The position numbers and the translations under genes were made by a program. From Pseudobdellovibrionaceae bacterium (GTDB taxonomy: Bacteria > Bdellovibrionota > Bdellovibrionia > Bdellovibrionales > UBA1609): a DNA stretch of 64,000 nucleotides. A model generated the notes under the pieces. That model did no database searches. It worked only from the letters and a program-made list of their open reading frames with translations, and was not told the origin of the DNA. The stretch lies in NCBI GenBank assembly GCA_020635075.1, contig JACKAM010000002.1, positions 199,802 through 263,801 on the forward strand, in the 5' to 3' direction. This document shows positions 1 through 17,278 of this stretch, piece by piece. Numbering within the stretch: the stretch's first letter is position 1; each line of letters starts with the position of its first letter.

Positions 1-1004
1 ACCCCCCCAACCTTGCGCACGTACTCAAGTCGGTGAGGCATACCAGGAAATTCATCAATGACCCGTTGAATAGCTTCATGGGTGGCGCCGTGTTCACGGG
101 CCACCAAAATTGCCGCCATCACGTTTTCATAGTTGTGTTTACCGCGCATTTTAGCGTTGGACACCGTGTAGTACTCGATTTCCGGACCGGTGCGCACCCG
201 AATCTGATCCTTGATCAAAACCGCACCACCGATATTCATGATTTGCGGTTCAAGGGTGGGTTTGCGAGAGAAGTAGAAGATTCGACCTCTCTGGACAGCT
301 GGGTCCCGAGCCAATTCCACCACCGCGTTGTCGTCGGCGTTGAGAATGCTGGTTGTGGACTGATTGGTGTTAAGGAAAATCCGTCTCTTGGCATTGACGT
401 ACTCTTCCATGCTCCGATAGCGATCCAAGTGATTTTCAGCCAAATTCATGAAGACAATATTAGAGGGGTTGAAATTCTCAACATGCTCCAATTGGAAACT
501 ACTGACCTCTAAGATCACCACCTGGGCCTTTTCTCCAGCGCGCAGGTATTCACTCAGCGGCTCGCCAAAGTTACCGCCAACCCAACAATTGACCCCAGAG
601 CGACTCAAAAACTGTTCTACCATCCGGGTGGTTGTCGTTTTACCATTGGTTCCAGTAATGGCGATAACCGGTTCCTGAATAAACTGTGAGCAAAACTCAA
701 ATTCACCCGTAACTTTGACCCCATGGCTGCGAGCATAATCAAAGATTTTCAGGTGAGGGGGGACACCGGGACTTAGGATAATCAAATCCTGCTGAAGAAA
801 TGTCTTTGGCGTGTGCCCTCCCAAGTCATAATGAACCTCCAACCCAGACATGGCCTCCAAATGGTTGGCCAATTCCGCCTTTGACTTGTGATCACTCACC
901 GTAACTTCGGCACCATTTTCAGTTAACAGGCGAGCAAGAGAAACCCCCGTTCTCGCCAGACCCACAATCAGAATCTTCTTTCCCCTAATTTCAGACAACT
1001 CCAT
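1..1004 (-). CDS. murD: UDP-N-acetylmuramoylalanine--D-glutamate ligase MurD; C-terminal end cut by window edge
   Basis: Absent from the ORF track because it runs off the window. My reverse translation from the ATG at 1004 gives MELSEIRGKKILIVGLARTGVSLARLL... and later ITGTNGKTTTT (Mur ligase P-loop). It lies directly downstream of mraY in dcw order. Confidence 0.85.
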   Translation of the reverse strand, partial: MELSEIRGKKILIVGLARTGVSLARLLTENGAEVTVSDHKSKAELANHLEAMSGLEVHYDLGGHTPKTFLQQDLIILSPGVPPHLKIFDYARSHGVKVTGEFEFCSQFIQEPVIAITGTNGKTTTTRMVEQFLSRSGVNCWVGGNFGEPLSEYLRAGEKAQVVILEVSSFQLEHVENFNPSNIVFMNLAENHLDRYRSMEEYVNAKRRIFLNTNQSTTSILNADDNAVVELARDPAVQRGRIFYFSRKPTLEPQIMNIGGAVLIKDQIRVRTGPEIEYYTVSNAKMRGKHNYENVMAAILVAREHGATHEAIQRVIDEFPGMPHRLEYVRKVGG

Positions 1005-1017
1005 GATCTTTCCTACC

Positions 1018-2094
1018 TCATCTCAGTTTCAGTGTGCTCAAACTCAGCACGGCTAAAAGAATGCTTACAATCCAAAAACGAACAATAATCTTAGTCTCAT
1101 CCAAACCCTTGAGTTCATAGTGGTGATGAATCGGGGCCATGCGGAACACCCTCTTTCCCGTTAACTTGAAGGACGCCACCTGGGTAATAACGGAAAGGGC
1201 CTCTACGACGAATACACCACCTAACAAAACCAATAATAACTCGTTATGAGTTAACACGGCCATTACGCCAAGAAATCCACCCAGGGACAAACTGCCCACA
1301 TCGCCCATGAAGACCTGGGCGGGAAAGCTATTGAACCAAAGGAAGGCCAGCCCAGAGGCAACGACGGCTGCTGCCAGGATTGTCAACTCACCAGATCCAG
1401 TAACAAAGGGAATAGCCAGGTAACGAGCGATCTCCGAGTGTCCCGCAACGTAGGCGAAGATCATGAATGTTCCAGCACAGACAATAACTGGAAAAATCGC
1501 CAGTCCATCCAAACCATCGGTAAGGTTCACTGCATTGGCGCACCCGACGATTGTGAGAGCCGCAAAGGGGACATAGAACCAACCGAGATCAAAATGAACT
1601 TCTTTGAGGAAGGGGACCGAAAGAACTGTGGTGATCTGACCATCCCATACCAAATAGGCCACGACTAAACCGGAAATCAAAAACTCAAGCAACAGTCTTA
1701 GCCTACCCGACAGTCCTTTTGAGTTCTTCTTAGCCACCTTGAGATAGTCATCTCGGTAGCCAATCAAACCAAACCCATAGGTCACGACCAAAACCGCCCA
1801 GACCATAGGATTCAGCATATCGACCCACAATATCGCTGGAGCCAGTAGTCCCATGAGAATCAGTCCACCACCCATGGTTGGTGTTCCGGCCTTTTTCTTG
1901 TGGCTTTGTGGCCCGTCCTCGCGAATGCTCTGGCCCACCTGTTTTTTCACCAGATGACGAATAAAATAGGGACCAAGGATCCAACAAAGAAAGAAGGCCG
2001 TAAAAAATGAAATGAAAGTTCTAAATGTGATGTAACGAAAGACGTTCAGAGCAGAGATTGAATCCGACGCCTCATAGAGCCAACGATAGAGCAT
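1018..2094 (-). CDS. mraY: phospho-N-acetylmuramoyl-pentapeptide transferase
   Basis: 358 aa polytopic membrane protein. Has the [12 protein letters not shown]-terminus and the [13 protein letters not shown] and HHHYEL motifs typical of MraY. dcw context. Confidence 0.95.
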
Positions 2095-2128
2095 TTACCC
2101 GCATTCCCGTAATCAGCTGTGCGTTGCC

Positions 2129-3535
2129 CTAAAAGCCGATTGGATCCCAGGCCTTAATCACCTGCTCCAGCTTCATCCCGCGCGAACCCTTAATGGCAAC
2201 GATGTCCTGATCGTTTAGCATAGAGCCGATACGAGTTGCAAGCTCTTCTTTGTAAGTGTCTGAAATAAATAGATTTTTTCGAAATTCTGTGCGCCTCACC
2301 CCACGCTCGAAAGCGGCATGGGAAGGGCCGATGAACCATAGGGTGTCCACATCGATGTTGCCCACCATCTCACCTAGCTCCTCATGGAGGCGGTCGGACT
2401 CCTTGCCCAGCTCCAACATCTCTCCCAGAACCAGTATTTTCTTCCCCTTCATGGGCATCTCGTAGAGGTTTTTGATTAAGGCCGCCATGCTTTCCGGGTT
2501 GGCATTATAGCCATCAAACAAGACAGGAGTGCCGCACTTCAATCGTACCAACTGATTGCGCCCCCAGGCACAGCGCAACTCTGGAAGACCCGCCCAGATT
2601 TGCTCGGGTCCCATTCCCGCAGCCATTGCCAGGGCCGCTGCTGCCATTATGTTGGTTCCGTTTTGTCGACCAAACACCGGAACCCTTACATCTCCTTCCA
2701 CTTCGCCGATCAATCCCATGACCTGAATAAAGTCGAGCCCGATTTCGGTAACCCTTAAATTGACCTCAGCGTTGGATTTGTAGGCGGAAAAGGTGAGTAT
2801 GTGTTTTATTCCCTTTTTTACCGCTTCCTCATGCATACGAATGGTGTGCTCATTGACCAGATTATAAACCTGGATGGCCTTGGGGCATGAGCGGTAAAGT
2901 TCCCACTTGGCCTGCACCACGGCCTCCAGACTGCCCAACTCACCAATATGGGCCTGACCCACGTTGGTCACCAAAACAATATCGGGACTGGCAATTTCGC
3001 ATAAGCGAGTGATCTCCCCAGAATGATTCATGCCCATTTCAACCACGGCAACTTCGTGTTCGGGTTCTATCGCCAATAGGGTCAGGGGAACACCCCAGTG
3101 ATTATTGTAACTTCCCTTGTTGTAATGAGTCTTAAATTGGCGATTCAAAAGGGAGGCAACAAACTCCTTTGTCGTTGTTTTACCAGTTGAGCCTGTTATG
3201 GCGATGATCTTGGCTTTGTTCTTCCTGCGCCAATAGGATCCCAAGTCCTGAAGGCCCTTAAGTGTGTCACGAACCTGTACCAGGGTCACCTGATCGACGA
3301 GATCCTTTAGCTCAGGAACAAACTTATCGACAAGAAGACCTGTCGCACCTTGAGTGACGGCGGATTCGACAAAGTCATGGGCGTCGAACTGATCTCCACG
3401 CAAGGCGATAAACAGCTGACCGGTAAGATCAAGACGCGAGTCTGTACCAATTCCAGACCACTCCGTCTGTTTCTCCGACAGGGTTTTGCCCCCCGTCGCT
3501 TTTAAGACCTCATCCAGTGTTAGCTTCCAACTCAT
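2129..3535 (-). CDS. murF: UDP-N-acetylmuramoyl-tripeptide--D-alanyl-D-alanine ligase
   Basis: 468 aa with ITGSTGKTTTKE P-loop and Mur ligase layout. 4-nt ATGA overlap with murE. Confidence 0.9.
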   Translation of the reverse strand: MSWKLTLDEVLKATGGKTLSEKQTEWSGIGTDSRLDLTGQLFIALRGDQFDAHDFVESAVTQGATGLLVDKFVPELKDLVDQVTLVQVRDTLKGLQDLGSYWRRKNKAKIIAITGSTGKTTTKEFVASLLNRQFKTHYNKGSYNNHWGVPLTLLAIEPEHEVAVVEMGMNHSGEITRLCEIASPDIVLVTNVGQAHIGELGSLEAVVQAKWELYRSCPKAIQVYNLVNEHTIRMHEEAVKKGIKHILTFSAYKSNAEVNLRVTEIGLDFIQVMGLIGEVEGDVRVPVFGRQNGTNIMAAAALAMAAGMGPEQIWAGLPELRCAWGRNQLVRLKCGTPVLFDGYNANPESMAALIKNLYEMPMKGKKILVLGEMLELGKESDRLHEELGEMVGNIDVDTLWFIGPSHAAFERGVRRTEFRKNLFISDTYKEELATRIGSMLNDQDIVAIKGSRGMKLEQVIKAWDPIGF

Positions 3536-5019
3536 TGCAATAGATCTTTCACCACGTTCACATCACAAAAGGATAGCTTTTCTGTTCCCACAATCTGGTA
3601 GCCCTCATGTCCCTTTCCCGCAATCAATACAACGTCACCGGAGTTTGCTGATCGCAGCGCCCTAGAAATAGCTTGTTTTCGATCCACTTCACTAAACACT
3701 TTATGGTCCCTATCTCCCTCTTCAATCCCTGAAAAAATATCCTGGATAATCTCCTCCGGGTCCTCTGTCCGCGGATTGTCCGAGGTGACAAACACCAGGT
3801 CCGATCCCTCGACGGCCGCCTTCGCCATAAGTGGGCGTTTGCCCTTATCTCTATCGCCCCCACAACCAAAAACCGAAATAATTCTTGCTGTCGATCCAGA
3901 CAGGCGACGAATTTCGTTCAAAGACGCCAACACAGATTTTAACGCATCATCTGTGTGAGCGTAATCCACAAATACATGAATGCCCTTTTGATTTTCCACT
4001 CTCTCCATTCGTCCAGGAACGCCGTGAAAACGGGACAGAGCCGTGGCACAGGTCTCACTAGAAACACCAGCCGCCAGTCCAACGGCAAATGCCGCTGTGC
4101 AGTTGTAGACATTGTGCCGACCAATCAAGGGACTGCTGATTTCCGTCACTCCACGGGGATGGCGGATTTCATACCTACAACCAGAGAAACCCTGATCCAT
4201 AATCTGAAAACAGAAATCCGCTTCTCTTTCACCATAGGTCCAGCGAGTGGCCTTGTCGGCAATTCGCAACTTACGACCATAAGGGTCATCACGATTGATA
4301 ATGGCATAAAGGTCACGCTTTTCTGACCCCCACAATATCTCATCGAACAGTCTTTGCTTGGCCGAAAAATAACTGTCGAGATCGCCGTGGTAGTCCAGGT
4401 GATCCCTGGTCAAATTTGTGAACACCACGGCATCAAAGGGAATCGCGTCTGCACGAAATTGCGACAAGGCATGACTGGACACCTCGAAGGCTACGGCCTT
4501 TGCCCCTAGAGACTTAAACTCGACCAAACGCTTCTGCAGATCCAGGGCATCAGGAGTGGTGAGCTGACTTTCCCAAACATGGGTCCCAATGTGGTGGTCC
4601 ACAGTGCCCATGACCCCAGTCGACCACCCATATTCATTCAAGATGGACTCCACTAGGTAGGCCAAACTAGTCTTACCATTTGTGCCCGTTACGCCAACAC
4701 AATACATGGAGGCTGCCGGGTTGTTGTAATAGCGACTCGCCAATTGATCTAAAGCCTTGCGACAGTCTCGAACCACCGCCACCGCTCCGGGGTAATCCGC
4801 GGGAATCTTTGACTCCGATTCCACCACCACACCCACAGCCCCAGCGCGGCAGACCTGAGGGAGAAAATCATGACCGTCATGGGCCTGTCCGCGAACCGCC
4901 ACGTAGACACAGCCCGGCTCGACCAGCCGAGAGTCCCGACAAATGAAACGCACATCAGCCGACCGCTGATGGCCCCATTTCAATTGTGGGTAAATGGAAA
5001 ATAACTGAGCGAGTTTCAA
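3532..5019 (-). CDS. murE: UDP-N-acetylmuramoyl-L-alanyl-D-glutamate--2,6-diaminopimelate ligase
   Basis: 495 aa with VTGTNGKTS P-loop and a DNPR motif near the C-terminus (SDNPRTEDP). dcw position between ftsI and murF. Confidence 0.9.
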   Translation of the reverse strand: MKLAQLFSIYPQLKWGHQRSADVRFICRDSRLVEPGCVYVAVRGQAHDGHDFLPQVCRAGAVGVVVESESKIPADYPGAVAVVRDCRKALDQLASRYYNNPAASMYCVGVTGTNGKTSLAYLVESILNEYGWSTGVMGTVDHHIGTHVWESQLTTPDALDLQKRLVEFKSLGAKAVAFEVSSHALSQFRADAIPFDAVVFTNLTRDHLDYHGDLDSYFSAKQRLFDEILWGSEKRDLYAIINRDDPYGRKLRIADKATRWTYGEREADFCFQIMDQGFSGCRYEIRHPRGVTEISSPLIGRHNVYNCTAAFAVGLAAGVSSETCATALSRFHGVPGRMERVENQKGIHVFVDYAHTDDALKSVLASLNEIRRLSGSTARIISVFGCGGDRDKGKRPLMAKAAVEGSDLVFVTSDNPRTEDPEEIIQDIFSGIEEGDRDHKVFSEVDRKQAISRALRSANSGDVVLIAGKGHEGYQIVGTEKLSFCDVNVVKDLLQ

Positions 5020-7316: not shown

Positions 7317-8215
7317 GGCAATTCTCCTTTTTGAAATACGCGCAGCTTAGCGCTGCGGGCGCGAGGATTTTTCTTGGCCTCACCCCAAGGTGCTTGAATG
7401 ACTTTCTTATTCACCAAAAATCCGCGATCACAAAGATCTCGCAGAGCATATTTGACGATTCGATCTTCGAGAGAGTGGAAGGTAATGATCATTAGTCTTC
7501 CTGAATCACGGAGGAGTTCCACCAATTGGGGGATCACTTCCTTAACAACATCTAGCTCGCGATTAACTTCGAGCCTGAGCGCCAAAAAGTATTGAGTGGC
7601 TGGATGGTGCCCCTTTTTTCGCCAACCGAGACAGCGTTCTATGAGCGAAGCTAACTCGCGAGTGGTGCGGAAGGCCTGTTTGCGGCGCTCCTCAATGATC
7701 GCATTAACCACCCGCCCAGGACTCCTTACCTCTCCCAGCTCCCTAAAGAGATCGGACAACTCATCCGGATTCCAATTGTTAATGATATCTTCCGCGGTCA
7801 CTTCTCCCCGCTGATCCATGCGCATATCCAAAGGGCCGTCATGGTAAAAACTGAAGCCTCGGTCACCACGATCTAACTGGGGAGAGCTCACGCCCAAATC
7901 GAGGAGGATAAGATCAAATCCAGCTCCACCATGAAATTCGCTGAATCTTTCCTGCAGGGATTCCACTTCGCGAAAGTTGGCCCGACAGAGAACCAAATGC
8001 CCTGAAGCCAATTCCCTTTGAAAATGCTCCTGACCATAGGCAATCGCCTCCTCGTCCTGATCGAGAGCAAATGTCCGCATCTGAGGAAACTCAGCCATCA
8101 AGGCCCGTGTATGCCCTCCCCTGCCAAATGTGCCATCCAGATAGTGGGCGGGAGGCTGACTGAGGCCCTTTGCCATTTGCAGAATGGGATCAAGGAGAAC
8201 CGGGATGTGTTCCAC
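7313..8215 (-). CDS. rsmH: 16S rRNA (cytosine1402-N4)-methyltransferase
   Basis: 300 aa starting MEHIPVLL. Has the DGTFGRGGHT SAM motif and FHSLEDRIVK motif. GTG start overlaps the mraZ stop. Confidence 0.9.
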   Translation of the reverse strand: MEHIPVLLDPILQMAKGLSQPPAHYLDGTFGRGGHTRALMAEFPQMRTFALDQDEEAIAYGQEHFQRELASGHLVLCRANFREVESLQERFSEFHGGAGFDLILLDLGVSSPQLDRGDRGFSFYHDGPLDMRMDQRGEVTAEDIINNWNPDELSDLFRELGEVRSPGRVVNAIIEERRKQAFRTTRELASLIERCLGWRKKGHHPATQYFLALRLEVNRELDVVKEVIPQLVELLRDSGRLMIITFHSLEDRIVKYALRDLCDRGFLVNKKVIQAPWGEAKKNPRARSAKLRVFQKGELP

Positions 8216-8682
8216 TATTCGTCCCCCTTGTCCATGTCCGCAACCACGGCCAGAATGTTATCGAAATCACCAGCTAGACTTTCATACAGTTCTTGCCAAC
8301 GCTGGGCTGACCAAATCTCGAACTTCCCTCCCATGCCAACCAAAACCGCCTCTTCTTCAAGAGCGGCAAACTTTCTCAACCCCTGAGGGATCAGCAAACG
8401 ATCCTGCGCATCCCCATTTACCACTTGGGCCCCTGCCATATAGAATCGCTGGTAGGCTTGCACTTCAGCTTTTAGGGGTGACAACCGGGAGATGCGCTTT
8501 TCCAAATTTTCCCACTCTTTGAGAGTGTAAACATCCAGACAGCGCTGTCCCTGGTACTGACCATTGGTGATCACAAGCGAGGTCTCTTTCTTGGGAAGGG
8601 ATTGTTTGTAGTTGGCAGGTAGCTTGAAGCGACCTTTGGGATCGATCTTGCAATCAAACCGGCCACGAAACAAAGCGGTCAT
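8215..8682 (-). CDS. mraZ: transcriptional regulator MraZ
   Basis: Two-repeat SpoVT/AbrB-like protein beginning M-TALFRGRFDCKIDPKGRFKLP. I prefer the ATG at 8682 (GGAAGG 6 nt upstream) over the ORF-track start at 8718. Confidence 0.85.
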   Translation of the reverse strand: MTALFRGRFDCKIDPKGRFKLPANYKQSLPKKETSLVITNGQYQGQRCLDVYTLKEWENLEKRISRLSPLKAEVQAYQRFYMAGAQVVNGDAQDRLLIPQGLRKFAALEEEAVLVGMGGKFEIWSAQRWQELYESLAGDFDNILAVVADMDKGDE

Positions 8683-8749
8683 CCATAACCTTCCAGGTAA
8701 AGAGGAAAGCCCATCCATGGGCTTTCAAAGTGGGGAAGGGAGTGTCCGT

Positions 8750-8790
8750 GTTTCCACTTCTTTCCACTTTCCACCACCTTTTTCCACTTT
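8750..8790 (-). promoter_or_regulatory. MraZ operator-like array: four GTGGAAA boxes at exact 10-bp phasing
   Basis: The minus strand reads aaaGTGGaaaaagGTGGtggaaaGTGGaaagaaGTGGaaac, with GTGG at offsets 4, 14, 24 and 34. It lies 68-108 bp upstream of the mraZ start. Confidence 0.55.
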
Positions 8791-8813
8791 AGCAGAGAGC
8801 AGCCTTGCGTCAA
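8786..8813 (-). promoter_or_regulatory. candidate sigma70-type Pmra promoter
   Basis: Minus strand has TTGACG (8813-8808), a 16-nt spacer, then TAAAGT (8791-8786). The -10 overlaps the first GTGG box. Confidence 0.35.
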
Positions 8814-8931
8814 GGGGGCTCATTTCCATTTGGGCTGTCTGTCTAGGCGTGTTAGCCTTTAAAAAAGCGATTTTAGACAGAGGCCCTGCGGACCAAAGGA
8901 ATGGTCCTGGACGAACAGGGAGGTGGGCCCG

Positions 8932-9948
8932 ATGATGCAGGAATGCCCAAAATGTGGGTTCTTGCAACCGCAAGATCGGTTTTGCGCCAACTGCGGTCTT
9001 GATATCGAGAACTATCGCCCTACCCCGACTCCGTGGCACCGGAAGTTGGTATTCAATTCTACGTTTCAAATCACCGCAATTGTTCTCAGTGTTGGCGCCA
9101 TGATTGCCTATATTTCTTGGCAGCAGGGACAGAAGATTGAAACCACCCGCCCTCAATTTATTGCGGGTGACGAAGGTGATCGCGAGCGAGAGGATGCCTC
9201 ACAACCTTCAGCCGATGGACGTTCGGACTCAGGCCAGGCCAGTGGCTCGATAGTTTCCCGAACTGCAAAGGTCAACCAACCCGCAACCGACATCTCCCAA
9301 CCAACGAATGCCATCGGCCCTCCGAGCGGAACCAGCAAAACGGCAACAGCCGATGGTGGGACAGACCCAGGCGAAAAGGTTGCACAAGGGCCGAAACCGC
9401 CTAGTCAGCTTGTTCTGCGATTTGCGGAAATCCCCAGAGAGGTGCTTAGCCAGATGTTTGCCGAATCGCAAATTCTTCACGAGGGGCAACAGGTTCAGGC
9501 GGGAACCTACAAATTTCAAGAGCCCATCGAACAACTCATCAAGAAAAGCTCGCAGGCTCGGTTTCTACCCGGCAAAACCAGCGCAGCTCTTACTGGTGGG
9601 CCATTGCGCATTCAATACACCAAGCCTCTTGGGGACAACCCAGAAGAACTCCAAGGTCTCAATTTTGAAGCCGCTGTCGTCAGTTTTACCCCGGCCGGAT
9701 TGGAGATGGAGACTGGGGGTGGTTTTTTTCTCGGCGGCAAAGGGGAGTTTCCGACCGTCAACGTGCCCCTAGACGGCACTTATAGTCTGCCTTATGGGAG
9801 CCTTCTGATTATTGCCGGAATTGTCCCCCACCGTCCGCTTTCTGAAAAAGAGGCCTCCGCCTTTCGGGGAAGCCCCATTGAAATCATGAATTCGCCAGAA
9901 TTCCTCGCCAATGAAAGCGAGTTCGTTCTTATAATTAAAGCCCAGTAA
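8932..9948 (+). CDS. zinc-ribbon membrane protein, function unknown
   Basis: N-terminal CPKCG...CANCG zinc ribbon, one TM helix, a Pro/Ser/Gly-rich linker and a C-terminal globular part. ATG at 8932 has GGGAGG 8 nt upstream; the ORF-track start at 8923 is a GTG inside that SD. Confidence 0.6.
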   Translation: MMQECPKCGFLQPQDRFCANCGLDIENYRPTPTPWHRKLVFNSTFQITAIVLSVGAMIAYISWQQGQKIETTRPQFIAGDEGDREREDASQPSADGRSDSGQASGSIVSRTAKVNQPATDISQPTNAIGPPSGTSKTATADGGTDPGEKVAQGPKPPSQLVLRFAEIPREVLSQMFAESQILHEGQQVQAGTYKFQEPIEQLIKKSSQARFLPGKTSAALTGGPLRIQYTKPLGDNPEELQGLNFEAAVVSFTPAGLEMETGGGFFLGGKGEFPTVNVPLDGTYSLPYGSLLIIAGIVPHRPLSEKEASAFRGSPIEIMNSPEFLANESEFVLIIKAQ

Positions 9949-10603
9949 GGAATCTGAGAACCTCTTGAGCATGGCCTTCGGCCTTAACGCCTCGCCATTC
10001 CTTTACCAACACACCATTTTCATCAATCAAAAAGGTGCTTCGCTCGATTCCCCGAACTTGCCGACCATACATATTTTTCATCTTGATAACACCAAACAAG
10101 TCACACAGCTCCTCGTCAGCATCACTGAGTAAATCGACGGAATAGCTTTGCTTAGATTTAAAATTCTCATGAGATTTCATTGAATCCCGAGAGACACCAA
10201 AGACCTCGGCGTTCTTCCCGGAAAACTGTTTGTGAAGCTGAGTGAACTCTCGCCCCTCGATCGTACAACCAGGAGTGGAGTCTTTAGGGTAGAAGAACAA
10301 GACCACAAGTTTTCCCTTGAGTCCCTGAAGGTTAATGGTTTTATTGCCGGTCGCAGGCAAAGTGAAGTCTCTCACCTTCTTACCCAGCTTCACACCTGCC
10401 CTGGGAACCAGAGCCGAAAGAACCATTTTCGTTTTTGGCGCCGATTTTTTAGCGGTCTTTTTTACTCCAGACTTTTTCGCAGACTTTTTGCCAGACTTCT
10501 TTTTCGCCACTGACTTTTTGGTGACCACTTTCTTTTTAGCAGTCTTTTTGCTGGCGGTTTTTACATTTGCCTTCTTCTTGGATTTCTTAGCCTTCTTTGC
10601 CAC
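9935..10603 (-). CDS. bcp: Bcp-type peroxiredoxin with a ~60 aa lysine/alanine-rich N-terminal tail
   Basis: The C-terminal 160 aa carry FFYPKDSTPGCT (peroxidatic Cys). The tail reads VAKKAKKSKKKANVKTASKKTAKKK.... GTG at 10603 is preceded by GGAGTGGAGG. The longer ORF-track start would overlap the upstream lipoprotein gene. Confidence 0.8.
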   Translation of the reverse strand: MAKKAKKSKKKANVKTASKKTAKKKVVTKKSVAKKKSGKKSAKKSGVKKTAKKSAPKTKMVLSALVPRAGVKLGKKVRDFTLPATGNKTINLQGLKGKLVVLFFYPKDSTPGCTIEGREFTQLHKQFSGKNAEVFGVSRDSMKSHENFKSKQSYSVDLLSDADEELCDLFGVIKMKNMYGRQVRGIERSTFLIDENGVLVKEWRGVKAEGHAQEVLRFLTGL

Positions 10604-10673
10604 AGAACACCTCCACTCCTTTTTGAGCGAAGACATTGTGAGAAACCTACCAACCAAAATCAAGAGTTTTAGA

Positions 10674-11570
10674 TTAGTTTCCCTGGCTGCCCGCATAGCG
10701 GGTGGCCACACCTGCGGCCTCTTCAAGAGAGTTCACCGACTTCAATCCGTAAACCCTTATATGGTCCAGCAAAAAGGCATCTTCCACTTCACCGCTGGGG
10801 TTGTCACCCACAAAGCCCGAGTCCATAGAGACACTCAAACGAAAAATGGCGGCATTCTTTTTGTCCTCGAATTTGGCAACATCAATTTGAACCTGGCGTG
10901 TAATCCAGTCCTTAGCGGCATGGTTACCCAGTACTACATTTGTTCCGAACTCTGAAGGCTCCTGCCAAATGGTTTCCCACACGGTGGTGCTCTGCAAAGC
11001 AGCCGGTACAGGAGTCGCTCCAAGACCGCAGGTGGCAGAGTCGTGAGGACAGATCTCTATGCGCAAACCCTCAGGGGTGTCCCTCTTGTTGATAGCCAGA
11101 GTTACCTTTTGCTCAAGCCTGACCGGAAGGTAAGATACCACGAAAACCAGATGGTGAAAAACATTGAGGTTCATGGGCTGGGAGATCAAATAGGTGTCAT
11201 GAGCCAACTTGTCATCCTGACTCATAAAAAGAACGGCTTTGGACCCATCAGGAACAACTCCTACATCGGCCTTGTCCTCGATGGTCACGGCCGCTTCAAC
11301 GCCCTCCTCGCCGTCGTCGCGAACGGCCGCATACCAATCAACATTGCCGCCGCCTTTGATCTGGTTTCGCTCGAAGCTATCCTTAATAAGGCTACATCCA
11401 CCGACAAACTTCTCCATACTCTCGACACTTTTGCACGTCGGAAGATTCGGCAAGACCGATAAAAGGTCAATTTGGCTATCTGAATTTTCGTTTTGAAGTT
11501 TCTCTTCCCCTGAACACCCGACAAGAAGTACCAAAGCGAACAACAGGGTCCATCTCATTTCAATACACAT
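10674..11570 (-). CDS. lipoprotein, function unknown
   Basis: Lipobox LLVGC at the N-terminus (MRWTLLFALVLLVGCSG). No recognisable catalytic motif. The start could be 11558. Confidence 0.6.
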   Translation of the reverse strand: MCIEMRWTLLFALVLLVGCSGEEKLQNENSDSQIDLLSVLPNLPTCKSVESMEKFVGGCSLIKDSFERNQIKGGGNVDWYAAVRDDGEEGVEAAVTIEDKADVGVVPDGSKAVLFMSQDDKLAHDTYLISQPMNLNVFHHLVFVVSYLPVRLEQKVTLAINKRDTPEGLRIEICPHDSATCGLGATPVPAALQSTTVWETIWQEPSEFGTNVVLGNHAAKDWITRQVQIDVAKFEDKKNAAIFRLSVSMDSGFVGDNPSGEVEDAFLLDHIRVYGLKSVNSLEEAAGVATRYAGSQGN

Positions 11571-11759: not shown

Positions 11760-12941
11760 TTAATTATTGGGTGCCCCGTCCAGTATCCAGTCTTCAATTG
11801 CCTGCCTGGCGGCCTGGCTAACCAGGCCGGCAGGCGGCATGGGATTATTGGCGTCGTTCATCCGACTCAGAAGGAGACTTCCCGTCGGATCATATGGAAT
11901 CACTACAAAGTAATTGATCATCTCCTGGTAGTTGGTCACGTTCAATCCTGCGCGAGGGTTGGTATTTCCGTGACAACCGACACAGCTCTGACCAAATGTT
12001 CCGCCCCCGGCAACCAATTCAGAGAAGCGGGCGGGGTTAAATGTTGTTGTGCCTAAAGATCCAAAACTCACTCCAAAAGTATCGCCCGCGGCGATGTCAG
12101 TTTCCACAATCAAAGTTCCCGTGGAGACCACGCGGTTTTGTCCAGACGGAACCTTACGGCTGACGGCCTTCCAGGTTGTTCCCTGAGCCAGCTCCTTGCC
12201 ATTGATCGACACACGGATGTCTTTAACCTCAACGGCTTGGCCACCAGCAAAGACTTTGGGATTTCTAAAGTTGTAGTTAGTTTCCCCTGTTGGGGTAGTG
12301 AATGTTCTCACTTCGACTTCAAAGCGGGCACCGGCAACCCCTTGCTGACCTTGAATCATGTCAGCTGAGAGATCTAACGTTCGAGCCTGATAGTTATTGG
12401 TAGCATTAAGGGCAATTTCCTTGGTCCCTACACGAGGGCCGTCAGGAGGAGGAATGACGACTCCACCTCCGCCGCCACCTCCGCCGCCGCCATTGTTCTG
12501 TTGAGCGGCGAGACAGTCGTTAAATGTGATCTGAGCTTCATCCCATCCTGTCTTGTACCCGTTGACCGCCTCCTGATGCTGTTCACCTGTGTAGGGTGGT
12601 TTGTGACTAGGATTAATCGCAAAGTCCGCAATCTTTAGTTCTCCGGCACCGGCAAAGGCCTCAAAGGCCAGCTCCAGATTATCCTCCCCAAAGCTTCCTT
12701 TTCCCCCACCACCATTGACATGGCAGCTGCCACAATTTGTTTTTAGGAAGGGTTGCCAACCTTTGCTGAATTCCTGTTTCAGTATGTCCCCGCAAATTCC
12801 AGATCCCAGCCCAAAGTTGCCACCCAGGTTTTTGGTGCTCCCTTCGCTGTGCATGGGAGCACAGCCTGTGCTACCCAATCCGAGGACAAGTCCGATTAAA
12901 ACCCCAATGTAAACGACGATTGTCTTTCCTGTGATTCCCAT
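11760..12941 (-). CDS. membrane-anchored protein with two CxxCH motifs, planctomycete-cytochrome-c (PSCyt1)-like C-terminus
   Basis: 393 aa with CGSCH near the N-terminus and CVGCHGNTNPRAGLNV...MPPAGLVSQAARQAIEDWILDGA at the C-terminus. Contains a Gly10 run. The N-terminal hydrophobic segment ends in GSTGC. Confidence 0.7.
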   Translation of the reverse strand: MGITGKTIVVYIGVLIGLVLGLGSTGCAPMHSEGSTKNLGGNFGLGSGICGDILKQEFSKGWQPFLKTNCGSCHVNGGGGKGSFGEDNLELAFEAFAGAGELKIADFAINPSHKPPYTGEQHQEAVNGYKTGWDEAQITFNDCLAAQQNNGGGGGGGGGGVVIPPPDGPRVGTKEIALNATNNYQARTLDLSADMIQGQQGVAGARFEVEVRTFTTPTGETNYNFRNPKVFAGGQAVEVKDIRVSINGKELAQGTTWKAVSRKVPSGQNRVVSTGTLIVETDIAAGDTFGVSFGSLGTTTFNPARFSELVAGGGTFGQSCVGCHGNTNPRAGLNVTNYQEMINYFVVIPYDPTGSLLLSRMNDANNPMPPAGLVSQAARQAIEDWILDGAPNN

Positions 12942-12986
12942 TGTTCACACTCCTTGTGAACTTGATGTTTAATAATCCCATTTTCA

Positions 12987-13010
12987 CAGCTGGGCCCCCC
13001 GGCCCAACTG
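12987..13010 (-). terminator. intercistronic GC-rich hairpin (10-bp stem, 4-nt loop), no U tract
   Basis: cagctgggcc-cccc-ggcccaactg lies 12 nt downstream of the stop of the 480-aa gene. One G-U position. Could be an attenuator or an mRNA-stability hairpin rather than a full terminator. Confidence 0.3.
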
Positions 13011-13021
13011 TCCATATTCAC

Positions 13022-14464
13022 TTAAAACAAAACCACTTGATCCAAATCTGAGTTGCTAAAAACGTTTGGTACGACTTTACTCAGAAGGTCGACCCGACCG
13101 GAAAACTTCAAGTAGTTGGCAAAAACCCCAGCAGCCGCTTTCTCAGCCGTTCCGCCAGTCACAAACTGGTCGTTGGCAGTTTGGCCTGAGGTGAAATTAC
13201 CCAACTGAAAGTTCTTAGTCGGCGGACGACCAGCAGGATCAAAAGCGATCATGTACACCACGCCAGCACTACCGCGGTCGCTTCTCCAAGCGGCGTCCGG
13301 GCTGTTTGAAACCGTACTGCTGCAAGAGCCGTCAGTGGACACGTATAAAAACATTTTTTGACCCATCAACCGCGCAGTTTCCAACACGCGGCCGATTAGA
13401 GCACCGGCTTGCTGGTCAGCCTGGTCTCCCCGGGTACGCGTATTGTTGTGGTAGTCGTAACCACCCAACTCAAGAGCTGCCGTACTGGCATTGCCGTTAA
13501 GTACATTGTAGACCATGGAACAGAACACTAAATCCTGGCTGTTATCGCCAGCATTTTGCGCATTCCAAACTCCTGCGATTCCCCGTCCATCTTGGCGAGG
13601 ATCCAAGGTGTCATTGTTGGAACTGATAACATCTACATTCTTTTTGCCCGCGCACTCCACAAGGTCTTTGAGGTTTTCACCACCACTCAGGCTGGCTAGT
13701 CGACGGGTTTGTTCCATACTCAACTTATCGATTGATTTAAAAAGTGATACTTGCTGGGCTTTGCTCAGCCTTCCAAGAGCATTAGTGAATCCACCTGAAG
13801 CTCCCACCAAATCCTGATACCGGTTCACAATCAGTGGCACGGGAGGTCTGACAAAAGCAACGCTTTGACGAATTCCAGTTTCGGAATCGCGGCGTCCTAA
13901 ATTCGGCAATTTGGCTCCCGCCAATCCTGCCGCATTAACCATCCCCGAGACATCCAGCTTGTTAGCATCTGAATCATCACGAGTGCGAACATTAACACCG
14001 ATAAAGGCCGTGTTGGCGATTGTTGCCGCTGTAGCCGTGGAACGAATTCCGGCTAAAAGCTTGCTGATACCATTGCCAGCAAAGGGTGTGTTACCAAATT
14101 CTCTTTCGATGGGAAGACTGCCTCCGGCACCTAGTCCCATCTTGTCGTAAGAGGTAAGTTTTTGTCCGCCTGCATCCATGGGCACAAAGTTGGCGCCCAG
14201 CATGGCTCCGCCGGCAAGATTGATGGTAATGAACGGAACCAAAGTATTGGTGCTTCCCCCGCCACCCCCATCATCTTCGCAAGTTGCCGCGTATGCAAAG
14301 TTGCTTTGCGCTACAACATTTACGATCGACGGTAAAAACAACATTCCGGAAAACTTGAGCAGCCCTGAGGCGAGAAATTCGCGACGTGTCTGGGGTGCTG
14401 CGTGGCCCGGTAGAGGTTCAAACTTACCTTCCTTGATCAGTTTTTCTATCTCTGCCTTTTTCAC
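13022..14464 (-). CDS. Tat-signal exported protein, DUF1501-like
   Basis: 480 aa with twin-arginine motif TRREFLASG followed by a hydrophobic stretch. Has a GGYDYHNN motif resembling the GGxDxH signature I associate with DUF1501 (sulfatase-fold) proteins. Confidence 0.7.
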   Translation of the reverse strand: MKKAEIEKLIKEGKFEPLPGHAAPQTRREFLASGLLKFSGMLFLPSIVNVVAQSNFAYAATCEDDGGGGGSTNTLVPFITINLAGGAMLGANFVPMDAGGQKLTSYDKMGLGAGGSLPIEREFGNTPFAGNGISKLLAGIRSTATAATIANTAFIGVNVRTRDDSDANKLDVSGMVNAAGLAGAKLPNLGRRDSETGIRQSVAFVRPPVPLIVNRYQDLVGASGGFTNALGRLSKAQQVSLFKSIDKLSMEQTRRLASLSGGENLKDLVECAGKKNVDVISSNNDTLDPRQDGRGIAGVWNAQNAGDNSQDLVFCSMVYNVLNGNASTAALELGGYDYHNNTRTRGDQADQQAGALIGRVLETARLMGQKMFLYVSTDGSCSSTVSNSPDAAWRSDRGSAGVVYMIAFDPAGRPPTKNFQLGNFTSGQTANDQFVTGGTAEKAAAGVFANYLKFSGRVDLLSKVVPNVFSNSDLDQVVLF

Positions 14465-14519
14465 TGTAATTCTCCTTGATCGGGCTCCTCATGAGCCCTT
14501 TTTCCCCAATAATCCCCTA

Positions 14520-15215
14520 TTAAAGTTCCAATGCATCCAAGCTAGCGATCATGACCGTGCATACGTAAAGGGCAAAGCGGTCGGTGTCGGCAGCCTGATT
14601 TCCTCCGGCGGCAATGACCTCAGCCATGGCATCCTGAAGGAGTTGCAGTTCTGTATCAGTTTCGTTTCGCCCCCAGAAAGATCTGGCGAGACGACGAATA
14701 ATGTCCATGCGTGCAGTGTTACTAACATTGTTAGGTCCAGACCCAAAATTCACTTGAGGGAAGATCCTGCGCTCAGCGGCGGCGGTCCCCTTCTCTTTGT
14801 TCACTAAGTCACCGCACACTTCACCCCCCAGAGAGGCTGCGGCCATTATCATCGGCGCATTCAGAGTGTTGGCCTTTCCGTTCTCAGAAAATGAACCCTT
14901 CTTTTCTTCGTACAGAGATTTGGCTGCAGCACTGGGCTCTTCTATTCCCGAGATCGCCACCATGTTGTCCAAAACCTGACCAGAGTGAACCACCGAGGTG
15001 GTACGAGCTCCGTCGATAATTTTGAGATCGCCGTTACCGCCGCCAGGACCAGGAGGAAGAAGGCTTCCAAGATCACCCTGGTTTAGGCTGGAAAGATCTT
15101 CGTACTTGTGAACAAAGGCGTTGTTACAACCACTTGCCAGCAGGAAGACCAGACCTAGCATCCATACTTTGATTTCGTTTCCTGAATTGTTTTTCATTTC
15201 ATTCATATGTTTCAT
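14520..15215 (-). CDS. lipoprotein, C-terminus resembles the DUF1595/PSD5-type helical domain
   Basis: 231 aa with lipobox LLASGC. C-terminal IIRRLARSFWGRNETDTELQLL...ASLDAL matches the pattern seen at the start of planctomycete PSD multidomain proteins. Confidence 0.55.
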   Translation of the reverse strand: MKHMNEMKNNSGNEIKVWMLGLVFLLASGCNNAFVHKYEDLSSLNQGDLGSLLPPGPGGGNGDLKIIDGARTTSVVHSGQVLDNMVAISGIEEPSAAAKSLYEEKKGSFSENGKANTLNAPMIMAAASLGGEVCGDLVNKEKGTAAAERRIFPQVNFGSGPNNVSNTARMDIIRRLARSFWGRNETDTELQLLQDAMAEVIAAGGNQAADTDRFALYVCTVMIASLDALEL

Positions 15216-15232
15216 GGCTCAGACCTCCATCC

Positions 15233-17278
15233 TTAGTTGCCCAAGCATGCGCCTTGGACGGCAACACGCTCGAAGAGCCATTTCAGGTTGTAGTTGTTCT
15301 TTTCAAATTCGTCTGCAGTGGTCAGAATCATTTGACCTTCATTCAGTGTGGGCTCCCGCTTACACAGGCTTGAGTAAACCCGACGAACCATGCAGCGGCT
15401 GAAAGCCTGGGAATTTCCAATCATTGTTCCCAAGGAGTTAAGTCCTGCTCCTTGGATCTTTCCGCGCCAACCGAAGTATTTGAGGTTGGAGCCACGGATC
15501 AACTGATTGATCCAGGCGGTATTGTTTACAGCATAACCATCTGGGAACACGTCGTTGTTCACATTCAACTTGTCCGAGATTCCAGCGGGATTTCTCTTCA
15601 TTTGGTTTTCGCCATTTCCGTCGGCCAGACTCAAACCGTGCTTAACTCGGTTATTTTCGAAATCCAGTTGACCGAAGGCAGGGCGGATTGCATCCATGCC
15701 GGCATGACAGCCCTTACATTCAGCCTGGTACTTGGCGTTTGATCCACCAGGATATCGGTCCACATCGCGACCCACCATACTATCCGCGTTCGAGGTGTCG
15801 GCCCATTGTTCGATGGGCACACAGAGGAATTCGCGGAAGGCAAATTCCACTAAACGGCGATTTGTTCCTGCATCAGCGTGAGCCTCCAGGAAGGCACGAC
15901 TGGTGAGTATGCCCGCCGGATCAGGATTGGTCGTTGCTGCCCCGTTTGCTCCCATAATGGGTTGTCCGTTCACTCGGTGAAGGACGCGTGCCAGGGAGTA
16001 TCCTTGGCTGGCCAGGGACTCATAGTGGCGATTTGACAAGAGGATATCCTGAACCACGTTCTGAGGTACAGCGGCCTTGGTTGGATCAGCCTTGTAGTAA
16101 AAATCTCCACTGACAAGAAGACGAGCATCCAAACCATCGCGGGTGACGCCCACGACGGTCGCCACGAAGTCACTCAATGGAGCTTTCATGGTTTCGTCTC
16201 TGGTTGCCATTTGTGCGGCGAAATCCCGCACGGTGATGTTGTAGAAGTTTACAGATGCCGTCGCCTTCTTCGCCGCCTCAACATATTGATTGGCCGCCAT
16301 CAATGCTTCCATTTCATCAAGCACTGGGTGATCGATGGGCACCCGGGTTCCACCGAGACGGTGGTAGAGTACGGCAGCCTTTTGGCGAAGATCACTGATG
16401 GGTTCGTCCGGCTTAGGCATGACCGCCACATTTCCCGGTTGCACAGCCGTATCGCCCTGGATCTCTTTCGCAGTTAAAGCCCGGCAGAAAACAGCCACCA
16501 TGTGCAGCTCTCCCAGCCAGGGACGTTCCTGACCAGCTGTTTGGTAGCTCAGCTCGTTACCAAAGGCGAATTCCATGCTGTCATCCCAATTTGCAAATGA
16601 TCCACTACCACCAAGGTTGGTGAAGGTGGCCTGAAGCTGTCGATCGACATAGAGGCGCGCGGTGGTGCCATCTTTGACCATAACAACATGATGGAGAGCA
16701 TTCTCCTGAAGAACTCCATCAGGGCTTTCAAAGCCGTTTAACGATCCTTGGTTGTTGGTACCAGTTCGCACACGGCCCATCCAGTGGCCTACGCCATCGT
16801 AGGTCTGACCAACGGTGAAGTTGCGCGTTCCAGAATCTCGGGACAGAGTGATCATACGCGCTGGACCATTTTGGTTGTCCTCACTCACGCGGACATATGC
16901 CTCAACAGTGAGGGCATTACTGGCCTTACAGGCATTGATGATTTTGGTTGCCGGTGAACCCGAGCGCGCAATGGTTGGCTGGTTAAACCGCAGATAACCA
17001 TTTTCGCGAGTCACGCGAGCCGGATCACCGATTGTCAGATTCAGGGGAGTTCCTACTCCTGAAGAATCAACAACGGGTCCCGTGGTGTTATTAAAGAGAT
17101 AAAGAGCAGCGATCCCTGTCTTGCTACCTTCACCGTTGATATCCAGTGCTCCAGCCAGAGGCTGTGCACCGATACCAATGGTGAGCAAAGATGTGTAGAT
17201 GATGTTCTTTATCCACGTCCTTGTGGTTGGAACTTGAGTTCCATAGGCACTACCGACCATGGCAGTTCTCCCTTTCAT
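15233..17278 (-). CDS. secreted LamG-domain protein fused to a DUF1588/PSCyt3-like CxxCH domain
   Basis: The N-terminal third is LamG-like (ALTVEAYVRV...HHVVMVKDGTTARLYVDRQL). The C-terminal part has GILTSRAFLEAH...RRLVEFAFREFLC and CKGCHAGMDAIRPAFGQLDF. Start is uncertain (17278, 17260 or the ORF-track 17392). Confidence 0.7.
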   Translation of the reverse strand: MKGRTAMVGSAYGTQVPTTRTWIKNIIYTSLLTIGIGAQPLAGALDINGEGSKTGIAALYLFNNTTGPVVDSSGVGTPLNLTIGDPARVTRENGYLRFNQPTIARSGSPATKIINACKASNALTVEAYVRVSEDNQNGPARMITLSRDSGTRNFTVGQTYDGVGHWMGRVRTGTNNQGSLNGFESPDGVLQENALHHVVMVKDGTTARLYVDRQLQATFTNLGGSGSFANWDDSMEFAFGNELSYQTAGQERPWLGELHMVAVFCRALTAKEIQGDTAVQPGNVAVMPKPDEPISDLRQKAAVLYHRLGGTRVPIDHPVLDEMEALMAANQYVEAAKKATASVNFYNITVRDFAAQMATRDETMKAPLSDFVATVVGVTRDGLDARLLVSGDFYYKADPTKAAVPQNVVQDILLSNRHYESLASQGYSLARVLHRVNGQPIMGANGAATTNPDPAGILTSRAFLEAHADAGTNRRLVEFAFREFLCVPIEQWADTSNADSMVGRDVDRYPGGSNAKYQAECKGCHAGMDAIRPAFGQLDFENNRVKHGLSLADGNGENQMKRNPAGISDKLNVNNDVFPDGYAVNNTAWINQLIRGSNLKYFGWRGKIQGAGLNSLGTMIGNSQAFSRCMVRRVYSSLCKREPTLNEGQMILTTADEFEKNNYNLKWLFERVAVQGACLGN

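Follow-up and report, generated by a model that had tools for sequence, protein, structure and literature searches.

The first descriptions of the PSCyt, PSD, DUF1501 and DUF1552 domain families came from Rhodopirellula baltica (cited in PMC5615132 and PMC3542564), and proteins that carry these domains are numerous in the genomes of Planctomycetota and Verrucomicrobiota, where their function is unexplained (PMC3542564, PMC5615132). In the canonical arrangement, a single polypeptide with the domain order PSD3-PSD5-PSD4-PSCyt3-PSD2 (DUF1587/1595/1592/1588/1585), often with an N-terminal PSCyt1, is encoded beside a DUF1552 (HXXSHH) protein with a twin-arginine translocation (Tat) signal, and this pair occurs in Planctomycetota, Verrucomicrobiota, Bacteroidota and sphingomonads. 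Kamneva et al. 2012 (PMC3542564) described modules of DUF1501 with PSCyt1/PSCyt2/PSD1 in the Planctomycetes-Verrucomicrobia-Chlamydiae (PVC) superphylum, including Laminin_G_3-bearing and four-gene forms, and proposed that these modules, whose function was unknown, take part in membrane-targeted electron transport. LamG and similar carbohydrate-binding heads have also been reported on PSCyt proteins (PMC5615132). The subject of the present analysis is a group of four minus-strand genes, named g1 to g4 in order from position 17278 to position 11760, in a 64,000-nucleotide stretch of a Pseudobdellovibrionaceae genome (GCA_020635075.1, contig JACKAM010000002.1, positions 199,802 to 263,801; this whole stretch is referred to as the window). 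The results indicate that g1-g4 quite likely constitute a split and rearranged PSCyt/PSD module with a DUF1501/DUF1552-type partner that is specific to Bdellovibrionota. Full-text literature searches returned no functional study of these domain families and no account of the Bdellovibrionota module.

The four genes are head-to-tail open reading frames (ORFs) spanning positions 11760-17278, with intergenic gaps of 17, 55 and 80 nt (g1-g2, g2-g3 and g3-g4, respectively). The ORF list of the window and a direct motif search reproduced the four co-directional, tightly spaced exported genes, and every motif quoted for them, in the original prediction, which had been made from the letters alone. One genome per GTDB species was scanned, and relatives of g3 were encoded in 337 stretches, of which the best 80 were examined by tblastn with five window proteins (g1-g4 and the product of ORF 10674-11570), and gene order was counted in the 57 loci that had enough flanking DNA. 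The four genes were co-located at nearly all of the best 80 loci. All four were present in 54 of the 57 loci, in the order g1-g2-g3-g4 in 53, and the median gaps in the relatives were 11, 21 and 42 nt. Genes outside the four-gene unit varied from locus to locus, and in the window the module is flanked by separately transcribed housekeeping genes (thymidine kinase, phosphoribosyltransferase, SLT/LysM transglycosylase and peroxiredoxin). ORF 10674-11570 had been considered as a fifth module member, g5, and was ruled out as it is missing from all 80 loci. Because g1-g4 recur together in the same order, ORF 10674-11570 never does, and the outer neighborhoods vary, gene order identifies g1-g4 as one conserved operon, and the unit comprises exactly these four genes. 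A scan for promoters and terminators detected no signal exceeding the shuffled expectation.

In terms of distribution, the best 80 of the 337 loci were all labelled Bdellovibrionota, with the exception of one 'Bacillota' metagenome-assembled genome (MAG). The contig concerned (L059, JBLMWG010000269.1) carries a complete Bdellovibrionota-type module and is probably a binning error. Conservation of the module across Planctomycetota and Myxococcota was not seen among these 80 loci. The module is also found in cultured strains with complete genomes, namely Bdellovibrio sp. HCB290, HCB337, HCB288, HCB185ZH and HCB209, and a tblastn search of plasmids with g3 gave no match.

The g1 protein begins with a predicted Sec-type export signal. 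Its start is more probably the second ATG at position 17260, because this ATG follows a good ribosome-binding site (AAAGGGAGA) at a distance of 6 nt and a start there gives 675 amino acids, the length of the identical protein in the database. The LamG head that had been proposed for g1 was confirmed, with Laminin_G_3 scoring well above its gathering cut-off (65.2 bits versus 27.6, E 9.4e-18, model positions 12-151 of 151). Further downstream, direct search located GILTSRAFLEAHADAGTNRRLVEFAFREFLC at residues 456-486 and CKGCH at residues 521-525, in the region that had been called PSCyt3/DUF1588-like. In this region the window protein itself scored below the Pfam gathering cut-offs for both PSD2 (PF07624, DUF1585; 16.0 versus 25.8 bits, E 0.01-0.035) and PSCyt3 (PF07627, DUF1588; 12.5 versus 27 bits, E 0.19). 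For the C-terminal 392 amino acids of the g1 family, PSD2 matched 36 of the 39 homologues (best E 6e-9) and PSCyt3 matched 16, and some family members have a precomputed PF07624 match. Canonical partner proteins were drawn from plasmid DUF1552 loci, and Pfam confirmed their PSD3-PSD5-PSD4-PSCyt3-PSD2 architecture, in some cases after an N-terminal PSCyt1. When the 39 g1 homologues were compared with five such proteins by hhalign, the match had a probability of 97% (E 1.1e-10) over 175 columns that cover PSCyt3 and PSD2, with the g1 CKGCH in register with the canonical CAxCH. The two Cys and the His of the g1 CxxCH are invariant in 39/39 homologues. The profile comparison shows homology between PSCyt3+PSD2 and the C-terminal half of g1, and the earlier assignment stands in spite of the weak Pfam scores of the window protein.

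The first part of the g1 core is a family-specific helical domain of about 165 amino acids for which no relative was detectable; it was also tried as PSD4 or PSD3 and gave no signal (P 0.07). The AlphaFold2 (AF2) model of the core (C-terminal 392 amino acids, 15233-16411) had a predicted local distance difference test score (pLDDT) of 94.4 and a predicted template modelling score (pTM) of 0.93. A Foldseek search of the PDB with this model found no structural neighbor (best E 2.5) and no cytochrome among the matches, and no structure solved in the PDB appears to represent the predicted fold of the PSCyt3-PSD2-containing core.

The g4 protein matched PSCyt1 (PF07635) above the gathering cut-off, as had been expected of its C-terminal tail (30.8 versus 22 bits, E 4.6e-7, residues 320-372), and by this profile match its C-terminus is homologous to PSCyt1. 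Direct search placed CGSCH at residues 70-74, a run of exactly ten Gly at residues 151-160, CVGCH at 320-324, MPP at 368-370 and WILDGA at 385-390. The hydrophobic N-terminus ends in a Cys that is invariant in the 31 homologues aligned, as are two further Cys, both CxxCH motifs (including C320, C323 and H324), His113 in the context H-x-P-P-Y-T-G, and Met368 in the context P-M-P. H113 and M368 are candidates for axial haem ligands. The middle region of g4 was also considered as PSD3 and was rejected, as the similarity was limited to the surroundings of the CxxCH motifs. The three CxxCH motifs of the module, one in g1 and two in g4, are invariant across homologues that are only 21-67% identical. 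Together with the gene order kept in 53 of 57 loci, this places the pattern far beyond chance. The original prediction had named three outcomes that would speak against it, namely a lack of family matches, a lack of synteny in relatives and a lack of conservation of the CxxCH motifs; because both synteny and motifs proved to be conserved, two of the three did not arise.

The small g2 protein had no Pfam or NCBIfam match in the window version. Its hydrophobic N-terminus ends in a Cys (15126-15128) that is invariant in 35 homologues, and the same alignment has two other invariant Cys as well as the motif A-R-S-x-W-G-R-N-x-x-x-E-E. At the lipobox position the window proteins read A-S-G-C (g2) and S-T-G-C (g4), while F-N-N-C, the consensus in the family, does not fit the standard [LVI][ASTVI][GAS]C. 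Since the Cys is invariant but the box is often non-canonical, g2 and g4 are treated as putative lipoproteins. The C-terminus of g2 had been likened to the DUF1595/PSD5 domain. Here, hhalign against the canonical partners gave a weak match (P 0.011) whose aligned segment coincides with their PSD5 position, with canonical ...aYRRPxTxxE...L.SPxFL opposite g2 ...ARSxWGRNxTxEE...MLSSxDA; the Pfam PSD5 model (PF07637, DUF1595; cut-off 34.2 bits) matched only 3 of the 35 g2 members, and weakly (best E 0.014). The earlier claim is weakly supported, and the comparison is suggestive of a PSD5-like C-terminus.

One distant variant bears on the relation between these proteins. In locus L098 (5947-6984, plus strand), a single gene of 345 amino acids encodes g2 in fusion with the g4 N-terminal haem domain, and it lies between g1-like and g3-like genes. 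This fusion suggests that g2 and g4 are functionally linked. Canonical proteins carry PSCyt1, PSD5, PSCyt3 and PSD2 on one chain beside DUF1552, in the full order PSCyt1-PSD3-PSD5-PSD4-PSCyt3-PSD2, which agrees with the earlier claim that the domains of the present module are split across polypeptides. Given the conserved operon, the single-chain homologues that combine PSCyt1, PSD5, PSCyt3 and PSD2, and the L098 fusion of the g4 N-terminal haem domain to g2, the four proteins are best regarded as parts of one unit.

The g3 protein carries a Tat motif of the S/T-R-R-x-F-L-K type ahead of a hydrophobic stretch, T-R-R-E-F-L-A, at residues 26-32 (14369-14389), with R27 and R28 invariant in 32 homologues. 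Its other motifs are GGYDYH at residues 334-339 (13448-13465), STDG (13328-13339) and SDRGS (13268-13282). A 100% identical NCBI entry is annotated as 'hypothetical protein'. No Pfam or NCBIfam family matched the window protein, the 32 aligned homologues or 10 divergent homologues, and a sequence search against PDB chains gave no match. An exhaustive profile search at E<=1e-3 gathered 1,008 clusters (50% identity); given this number and the missing family hits, g3 represents a large family without a Pfam match. In a Foldseek search of the PDB with the AF2 model of g3 (pLDDT 77, pTM 0.76), all of the top 50 matches belonged to the alkaline-phosphatase superfamily, with a best E of 8.7e-4, and they included steroid, choline and carrageenan sulfatases, alkaline phosphatases, EptC, cofactor-independent phosphoglycerate mutase and phosphopentomutase. 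An inserted helical region of about 90 amino acids (residues 216-299) was modelled with low confidence. The invariant residues D164, N168, D337, H339, D378 and D396 are located at or just after predicted beta-strands.

These fold matches, all of them hydrolases, transferases and mutases of the alkaline-phosphatase superfamily, would also suit a purely hydrolytic scavenging enzyme, in which g3 would be a phospho- or sulfo-esterase exported by Tat, as PhoD and PhoX are, with g1 and g2 serving for recognition or as a scaffold. The PSCyt3 CxxCH would then be a structural or metal site and g4 a co-operonic cytochrome outside catalysis. Predatory Bdellovibrionota depend on periplasmic hydrolases, the g1 core model has no cytochrome-like neighbor in the PDB, and a haem-free protein, DUF1800, partners DUF1501 in Proteobacteria. 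However, 54 of 57 loci have g4 together with g1, g2 and g3, L098 joins its haem domain to g2, and canonical proteins fuse PSCyt1 to the PSD chain. The invariance of all three CxxCH motifs and of the axial-ligand candidates H113 and M368, and the loss of two DUF1501 metal-ligand positions from g3, likewise argue against hydrolysis alone, which we consider unlikely.

Reference sets for DUF1501, DUF1552 and DUF1800 were assembled from annotated plasmid genes that were fished with short bait peptides, and the baits are not used as evidence. Two of the eight DUF1501 reference members were verified with Pfam, the DUF1552 reference rests on the records' own annotation, and examples of the DUF1800 and PSD-partner reference proteins were Pfam-verified. 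As a positive control, the DUF1501 and DUF1552 references matched each other by hhalign (91.5%, E 8.5e-7), while the negative controls, five unrelated and two reversed profiles, gave P 0.16-0.69. With Tat signals included, full-length g3 aligned with DUF1501 at P 0.0023, and a 133-sequence g3 profile aligned with DUF1501 at P 8.8e-4 and with DUF1552 at P 6.6e-4. The C-terminal motif block of g3 alone aligned with DUF1501 at P 0.0066, compared with 0.13-0.44 for five off-target or N-terminal-block comparisons, and with DUF1552 at P 0.36. In the in-register alignment, GGYDYH, TDG and SDRG of g3 stand opposite GGWDTH, EFGR and TDHG of DUF1501.

Several results weigh against the reading of g1-g4 as a split module with a DUF1501/DUF1552-type partner. 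The Foldseek matches of g3 superpose poorly overall (TM 0.18-0.28) and their E-values are borderline. The Pfam DUF1501 model (PF07394) matched 0 of the 32 aligned and 0 of the 10 divergent g3 members, even at E<=1-10, compared with 103-130 bits for genuine DUF1501 controls, and the DUF1552/HXXSHH model (PF07586) matched none of the 42; g3 contains no HxxSHH motif. When the Tat signals were removed from both sides, the profile comparisons were not significant (P 0.053 for DUF1501 and 0.17 for DUF1552); because P collapses in this way, most of the profile-profile signal is attributed to the shared Tat signal peptide, and the similarity at P about 1e-3 was downgraded. In addition, g3 has no counterpart of the DUF1501 beta-1 Asp, and an Arg replaces the His of T-D-H-G. 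The PSCyt3 CxxCH of g1 lies inside a long helix of a predicted fold that has no PDB neighbor, so haem binding at this site, which is putative, gains no support from fold analogy. Invariant residues of the DUF1800 partners include no CxxCH, which means that haem is not universal to pairs of a helical partner with DUF1501. Finally, no alkaline-phosphatase-fold enzyme is known to need electron transfer.

Taken together, the claim that g3 is DUF1501-like is weakly supported by the C-terminal motif block and its alignment with DUF1501, and not by Pfam membership, which none of the 42 members attains, or by the full-length similarity, which comes mostly from the Tat peptide. We regard g3 as a probable sister family of DUF1501 and DUF1552 within their fold class; it occupies their genomic position, has motifs nearer to those of DUF1501, and is a member of neither Pfam family. 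As two DUF1501 positions differ, the metal site of g3, if any, is remodelled, and g3 could be non-catalytic. The same remodelling (beta-1 Asp absent, D-H changed to D-R) would also suit a non-enzymatic periplasmic complex for binding, sensing or uptake, in which g3 is a degenerate, dead alkaline-phosphatase-fold subunit that binds ligand and the haems sense redox state or gases or take part in the handling of haem or iron. The optional LamG binding head and the neighboring genes, which point to no metabolic pathway, would fit such a complex. On the other hand, g3 retains the invariant acidic/His/Asn cluster at or just after its predicted beta-strands, cofactor-containing enzymes are typical Tat cargo, and the genes beside the module include no conserved transporter, sensor kinase or regulator. 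A non-enzymatic role is judged to be very unlikely.

Under the preferred reading, that of a split PSCyt/PSD module with a g3 partner, the four proteins probably form a membrane-tethered periplasmic complex that combines a metal-dependent catalytic subunit with three c-type haems. The pieces of the canonical chain would be distributed over three polypeptides, with g4 supplying an extra haem domain and PSCyt1, g2 the PSD5-like end, and g1 PSCyt3-PSD2 and the optional LamG head, and g3 would stand in for the Tat-exported DUF1501/DUF1552 partner. The g3 protein would fold in the cytoplasm, perhaps taking up metal there, and after Tat export would assemble in the periplasm with g1, g2 and g4, where the lipidated Cys of g2 and g4 may anchor the complex to the membrane. 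A metal-dependent active site of g3 would be located at the C-terminal ends of the central beta-strands (D164, N168, D337, H339, D378 and D396). The three haems, one in g1 and two in g4, could provide a route between g3 and the respiratory electron pool or work on the substrate of g3 themselves, and the LamG head, where present, would bind a glycan or another polymeric ligand. We infer complex formation, haem attachment, lipidation, catalysis and redox coupling alike, and of these the redox coupling of g3 to the haems is possible but doubtful. The most far-reaching proposal, a minimal and subunit-resolved PSCyt/PSD-DUF1501/1552 machine in which g3 chemistry is coupled to electron transfer through the three haems, such as oxidative ester or glycan cleavage at a LamG-bound substrate, is quite unlikely.

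The composition of the module varies among the related loci. A LamG-type head is present on g1 in about 24 of about 74 related loci, and in the remaining loci g1 has about 420 or about 545 amino acids. LamG-bearing loci mostly have a longer g4, with 170-250 additional residues before PSCyt1; unlike most of them, the window combines a LamG-bearing g1 with a short g4. Most genomes among the 80 examined loci have one locus, and two MAGs have two each. These two MAGs (L011/L065 and L071/L072) each gave two separate loci of different subtypes. L044 also contains two copies: its minus strand encodes g3 and g4 of one (751-3611), and its plus strand encodes g1, g2 and part of g3 of the other (8001-10648). 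An additional, divergent paralogue of g4 sits between g3 and g4 in L066 (9419-11165), L071 (9431-10859) and L077 (9434-11289), all three of which belong to the LamG/long-g4 subtype.

Table 1. Positions in the window of the four module genes and of the domains and segments assigned within them.
Feature	Position	Strand	Description or basis
g1	15233-17278	-	exported LamG + family-specific helical domain + PSCyt3 + PSD2 (predicted export); 681 amino acids as ORF
g1 LamG/concanavalin-like head	16457-16933	-	residues 116-274; optional accessory domain; Pfam PF13385 Laminin_G_3
g1 PSCyt3 + PSD2 region	15242-15922	-	residues 453-679; CKGCH at 15704-15718
g2	14520-15215	-	small lipoprotein-like protein, 231 amino acids, PSD5-like C-terminal segment
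g2 PSD5-like C-terminal segment	14523-14711	-	hhalign
g3	13022-14464	-	putative Tat-exported protein, 480 amino acids, predicted alkaline-phosphatase-superfamily fold
g4	11760-12941	-	predicted dihaem lipoprotein-like cytochrome c, 393 amino acids
g4 N-terminal haem domain (putative)	CGSCH 12720-12734	-	CxxCH motif
g4 Gly10 linker	12462-12491	-	direct search
g4 middle region	between Gly10 linker and PSCyt1	-	length varies among homologues
g4 C-terminal PSCyt1 domain	11826-11984	-	CVGCH 11970-11984, MPP 11832-11840

Two minus-strand ORFs follow the module in the window. ORF 10674-11570, immediately downstream, encodes a lipoprotein-like protein of 298 amino acids that has no Pfam or NCBIfam match. 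ORF 9935-10726 encodes an AhpC/TSA peroxiredoxin (residues 115-241, Pfam E 4e-34); with the start codon as in the ORF call, a Lys/Ala-rich, histone-H1-like stretch of about 60 amino acids (KKAKKSKKKANVKTASKKTAKKK...) precedes the peroxiredoxin domain.

The low-copy, subunit-resolved form of the module in cultured Bdellovibrio strains offers an entry point to domain families that have long been unexplained, and its separate polypeptides would ease knock-outs, expression of each subunit, haem and metal analysis, and reconstruction of the complex. The module also defines a large, putatively Tat-exported family with a predicted phosphatase fold, no Pfam match and about 1,000 clusters at 50% identity. 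If g3 chemistry is coupled to electron transfer, the alkaline-phosphatase superfamily would gain a new, redox type of activity, and the PSCyt/PSD/DUF1501/1552 families, of which Planctomycetota and Verrucomicrobiota have many members, would gain their first function.

Compared with individual protein families, the module shows partial likenesses. The PSCyt1-type domain of g4 matches positions 39-116 of 118 of the LIC11213 family lipoprotein of Leptospira (NCBIfam NF047812, E 2.4e-8); however, g4 scores 34 bits against a cut-off of 100, and LIC11213 is a single small domain whereas g4 is predicted to have two haem domains, with a middle region of variable length. Foldseek places the predicted alpha/beta core of g3 nearest to the alkaline-phosphatase superfamily (sulfatases, alkaline phosphatase, EptC and cofactor-independent phosphoglycerate mutase), at TM-scores of only 0.18-0.28, and no C/S-x-P-x-R or D-S-A nucleophile motif was recognised in g3. 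The pairs of DUF1800 with Tat-signal DUF1501 in Proteobacteria and Actinobacteria are similar to the module in placing a helical partner and a Tat-exported protein in adjacent, co-directional genes. In contrast, g1 and g2 are not significantly similar to DUF1800 (E 0.17 and 0.34), which ruled out the idea that they are a split DUF1800, and no separate cytochrome gene is annotated beside the four annotated DUF1800 pairs examined.

The PVC modules of PSCyt1-PSCyt2-PSD1 with DUF1501 also combine a Tat-signal partner with exported CxxCH proteins, sometimes bear Laminin_G_3 and exist in four-gene versions as well, and it is with DUF1501 that the C-terminal motif block of g3 aligns best (P 0.0066). 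The Bdellovibrionota module differs from them in that it has no PSCyt2 or PSD1, g3 fails the Pfam DUF1501 model, and the host belongs to another phylum. In comparison with the canonical PSD/DUF1552 pair, the domains are on three genes in a permuted order, neither PSD3 nor PSD4 was detectable in the module by hhalign, and the mature domain of g3 has no significant similarity to DUF1552 (P 0.17; motif block 0.36). Relative to the canonical chain, g1 adds its family-specific helical domain of about 165 amino acids and g4 adds an N-terminal haem domain and the variable middle region. Separate cytochrome genes beside such a pair are also seen on plasmid pMSHV of Sphingobium herbicidovorans (L094, 963-6496), where the canonical PSD3-PSD5-PSD4-PSCyt3-PSD2 and DUF1552 genes are preceded by two small hypothetical proteins and followed by cytochrome c' and cytochrome b genes. 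The likeness of the module to the canonical pair itself consists of PSCyt3+PSD2 in g1, a weakly PSD5-like end in g2 and PSCyt1 in g4, with g3 next to them as the putatively Tat-exported partner.

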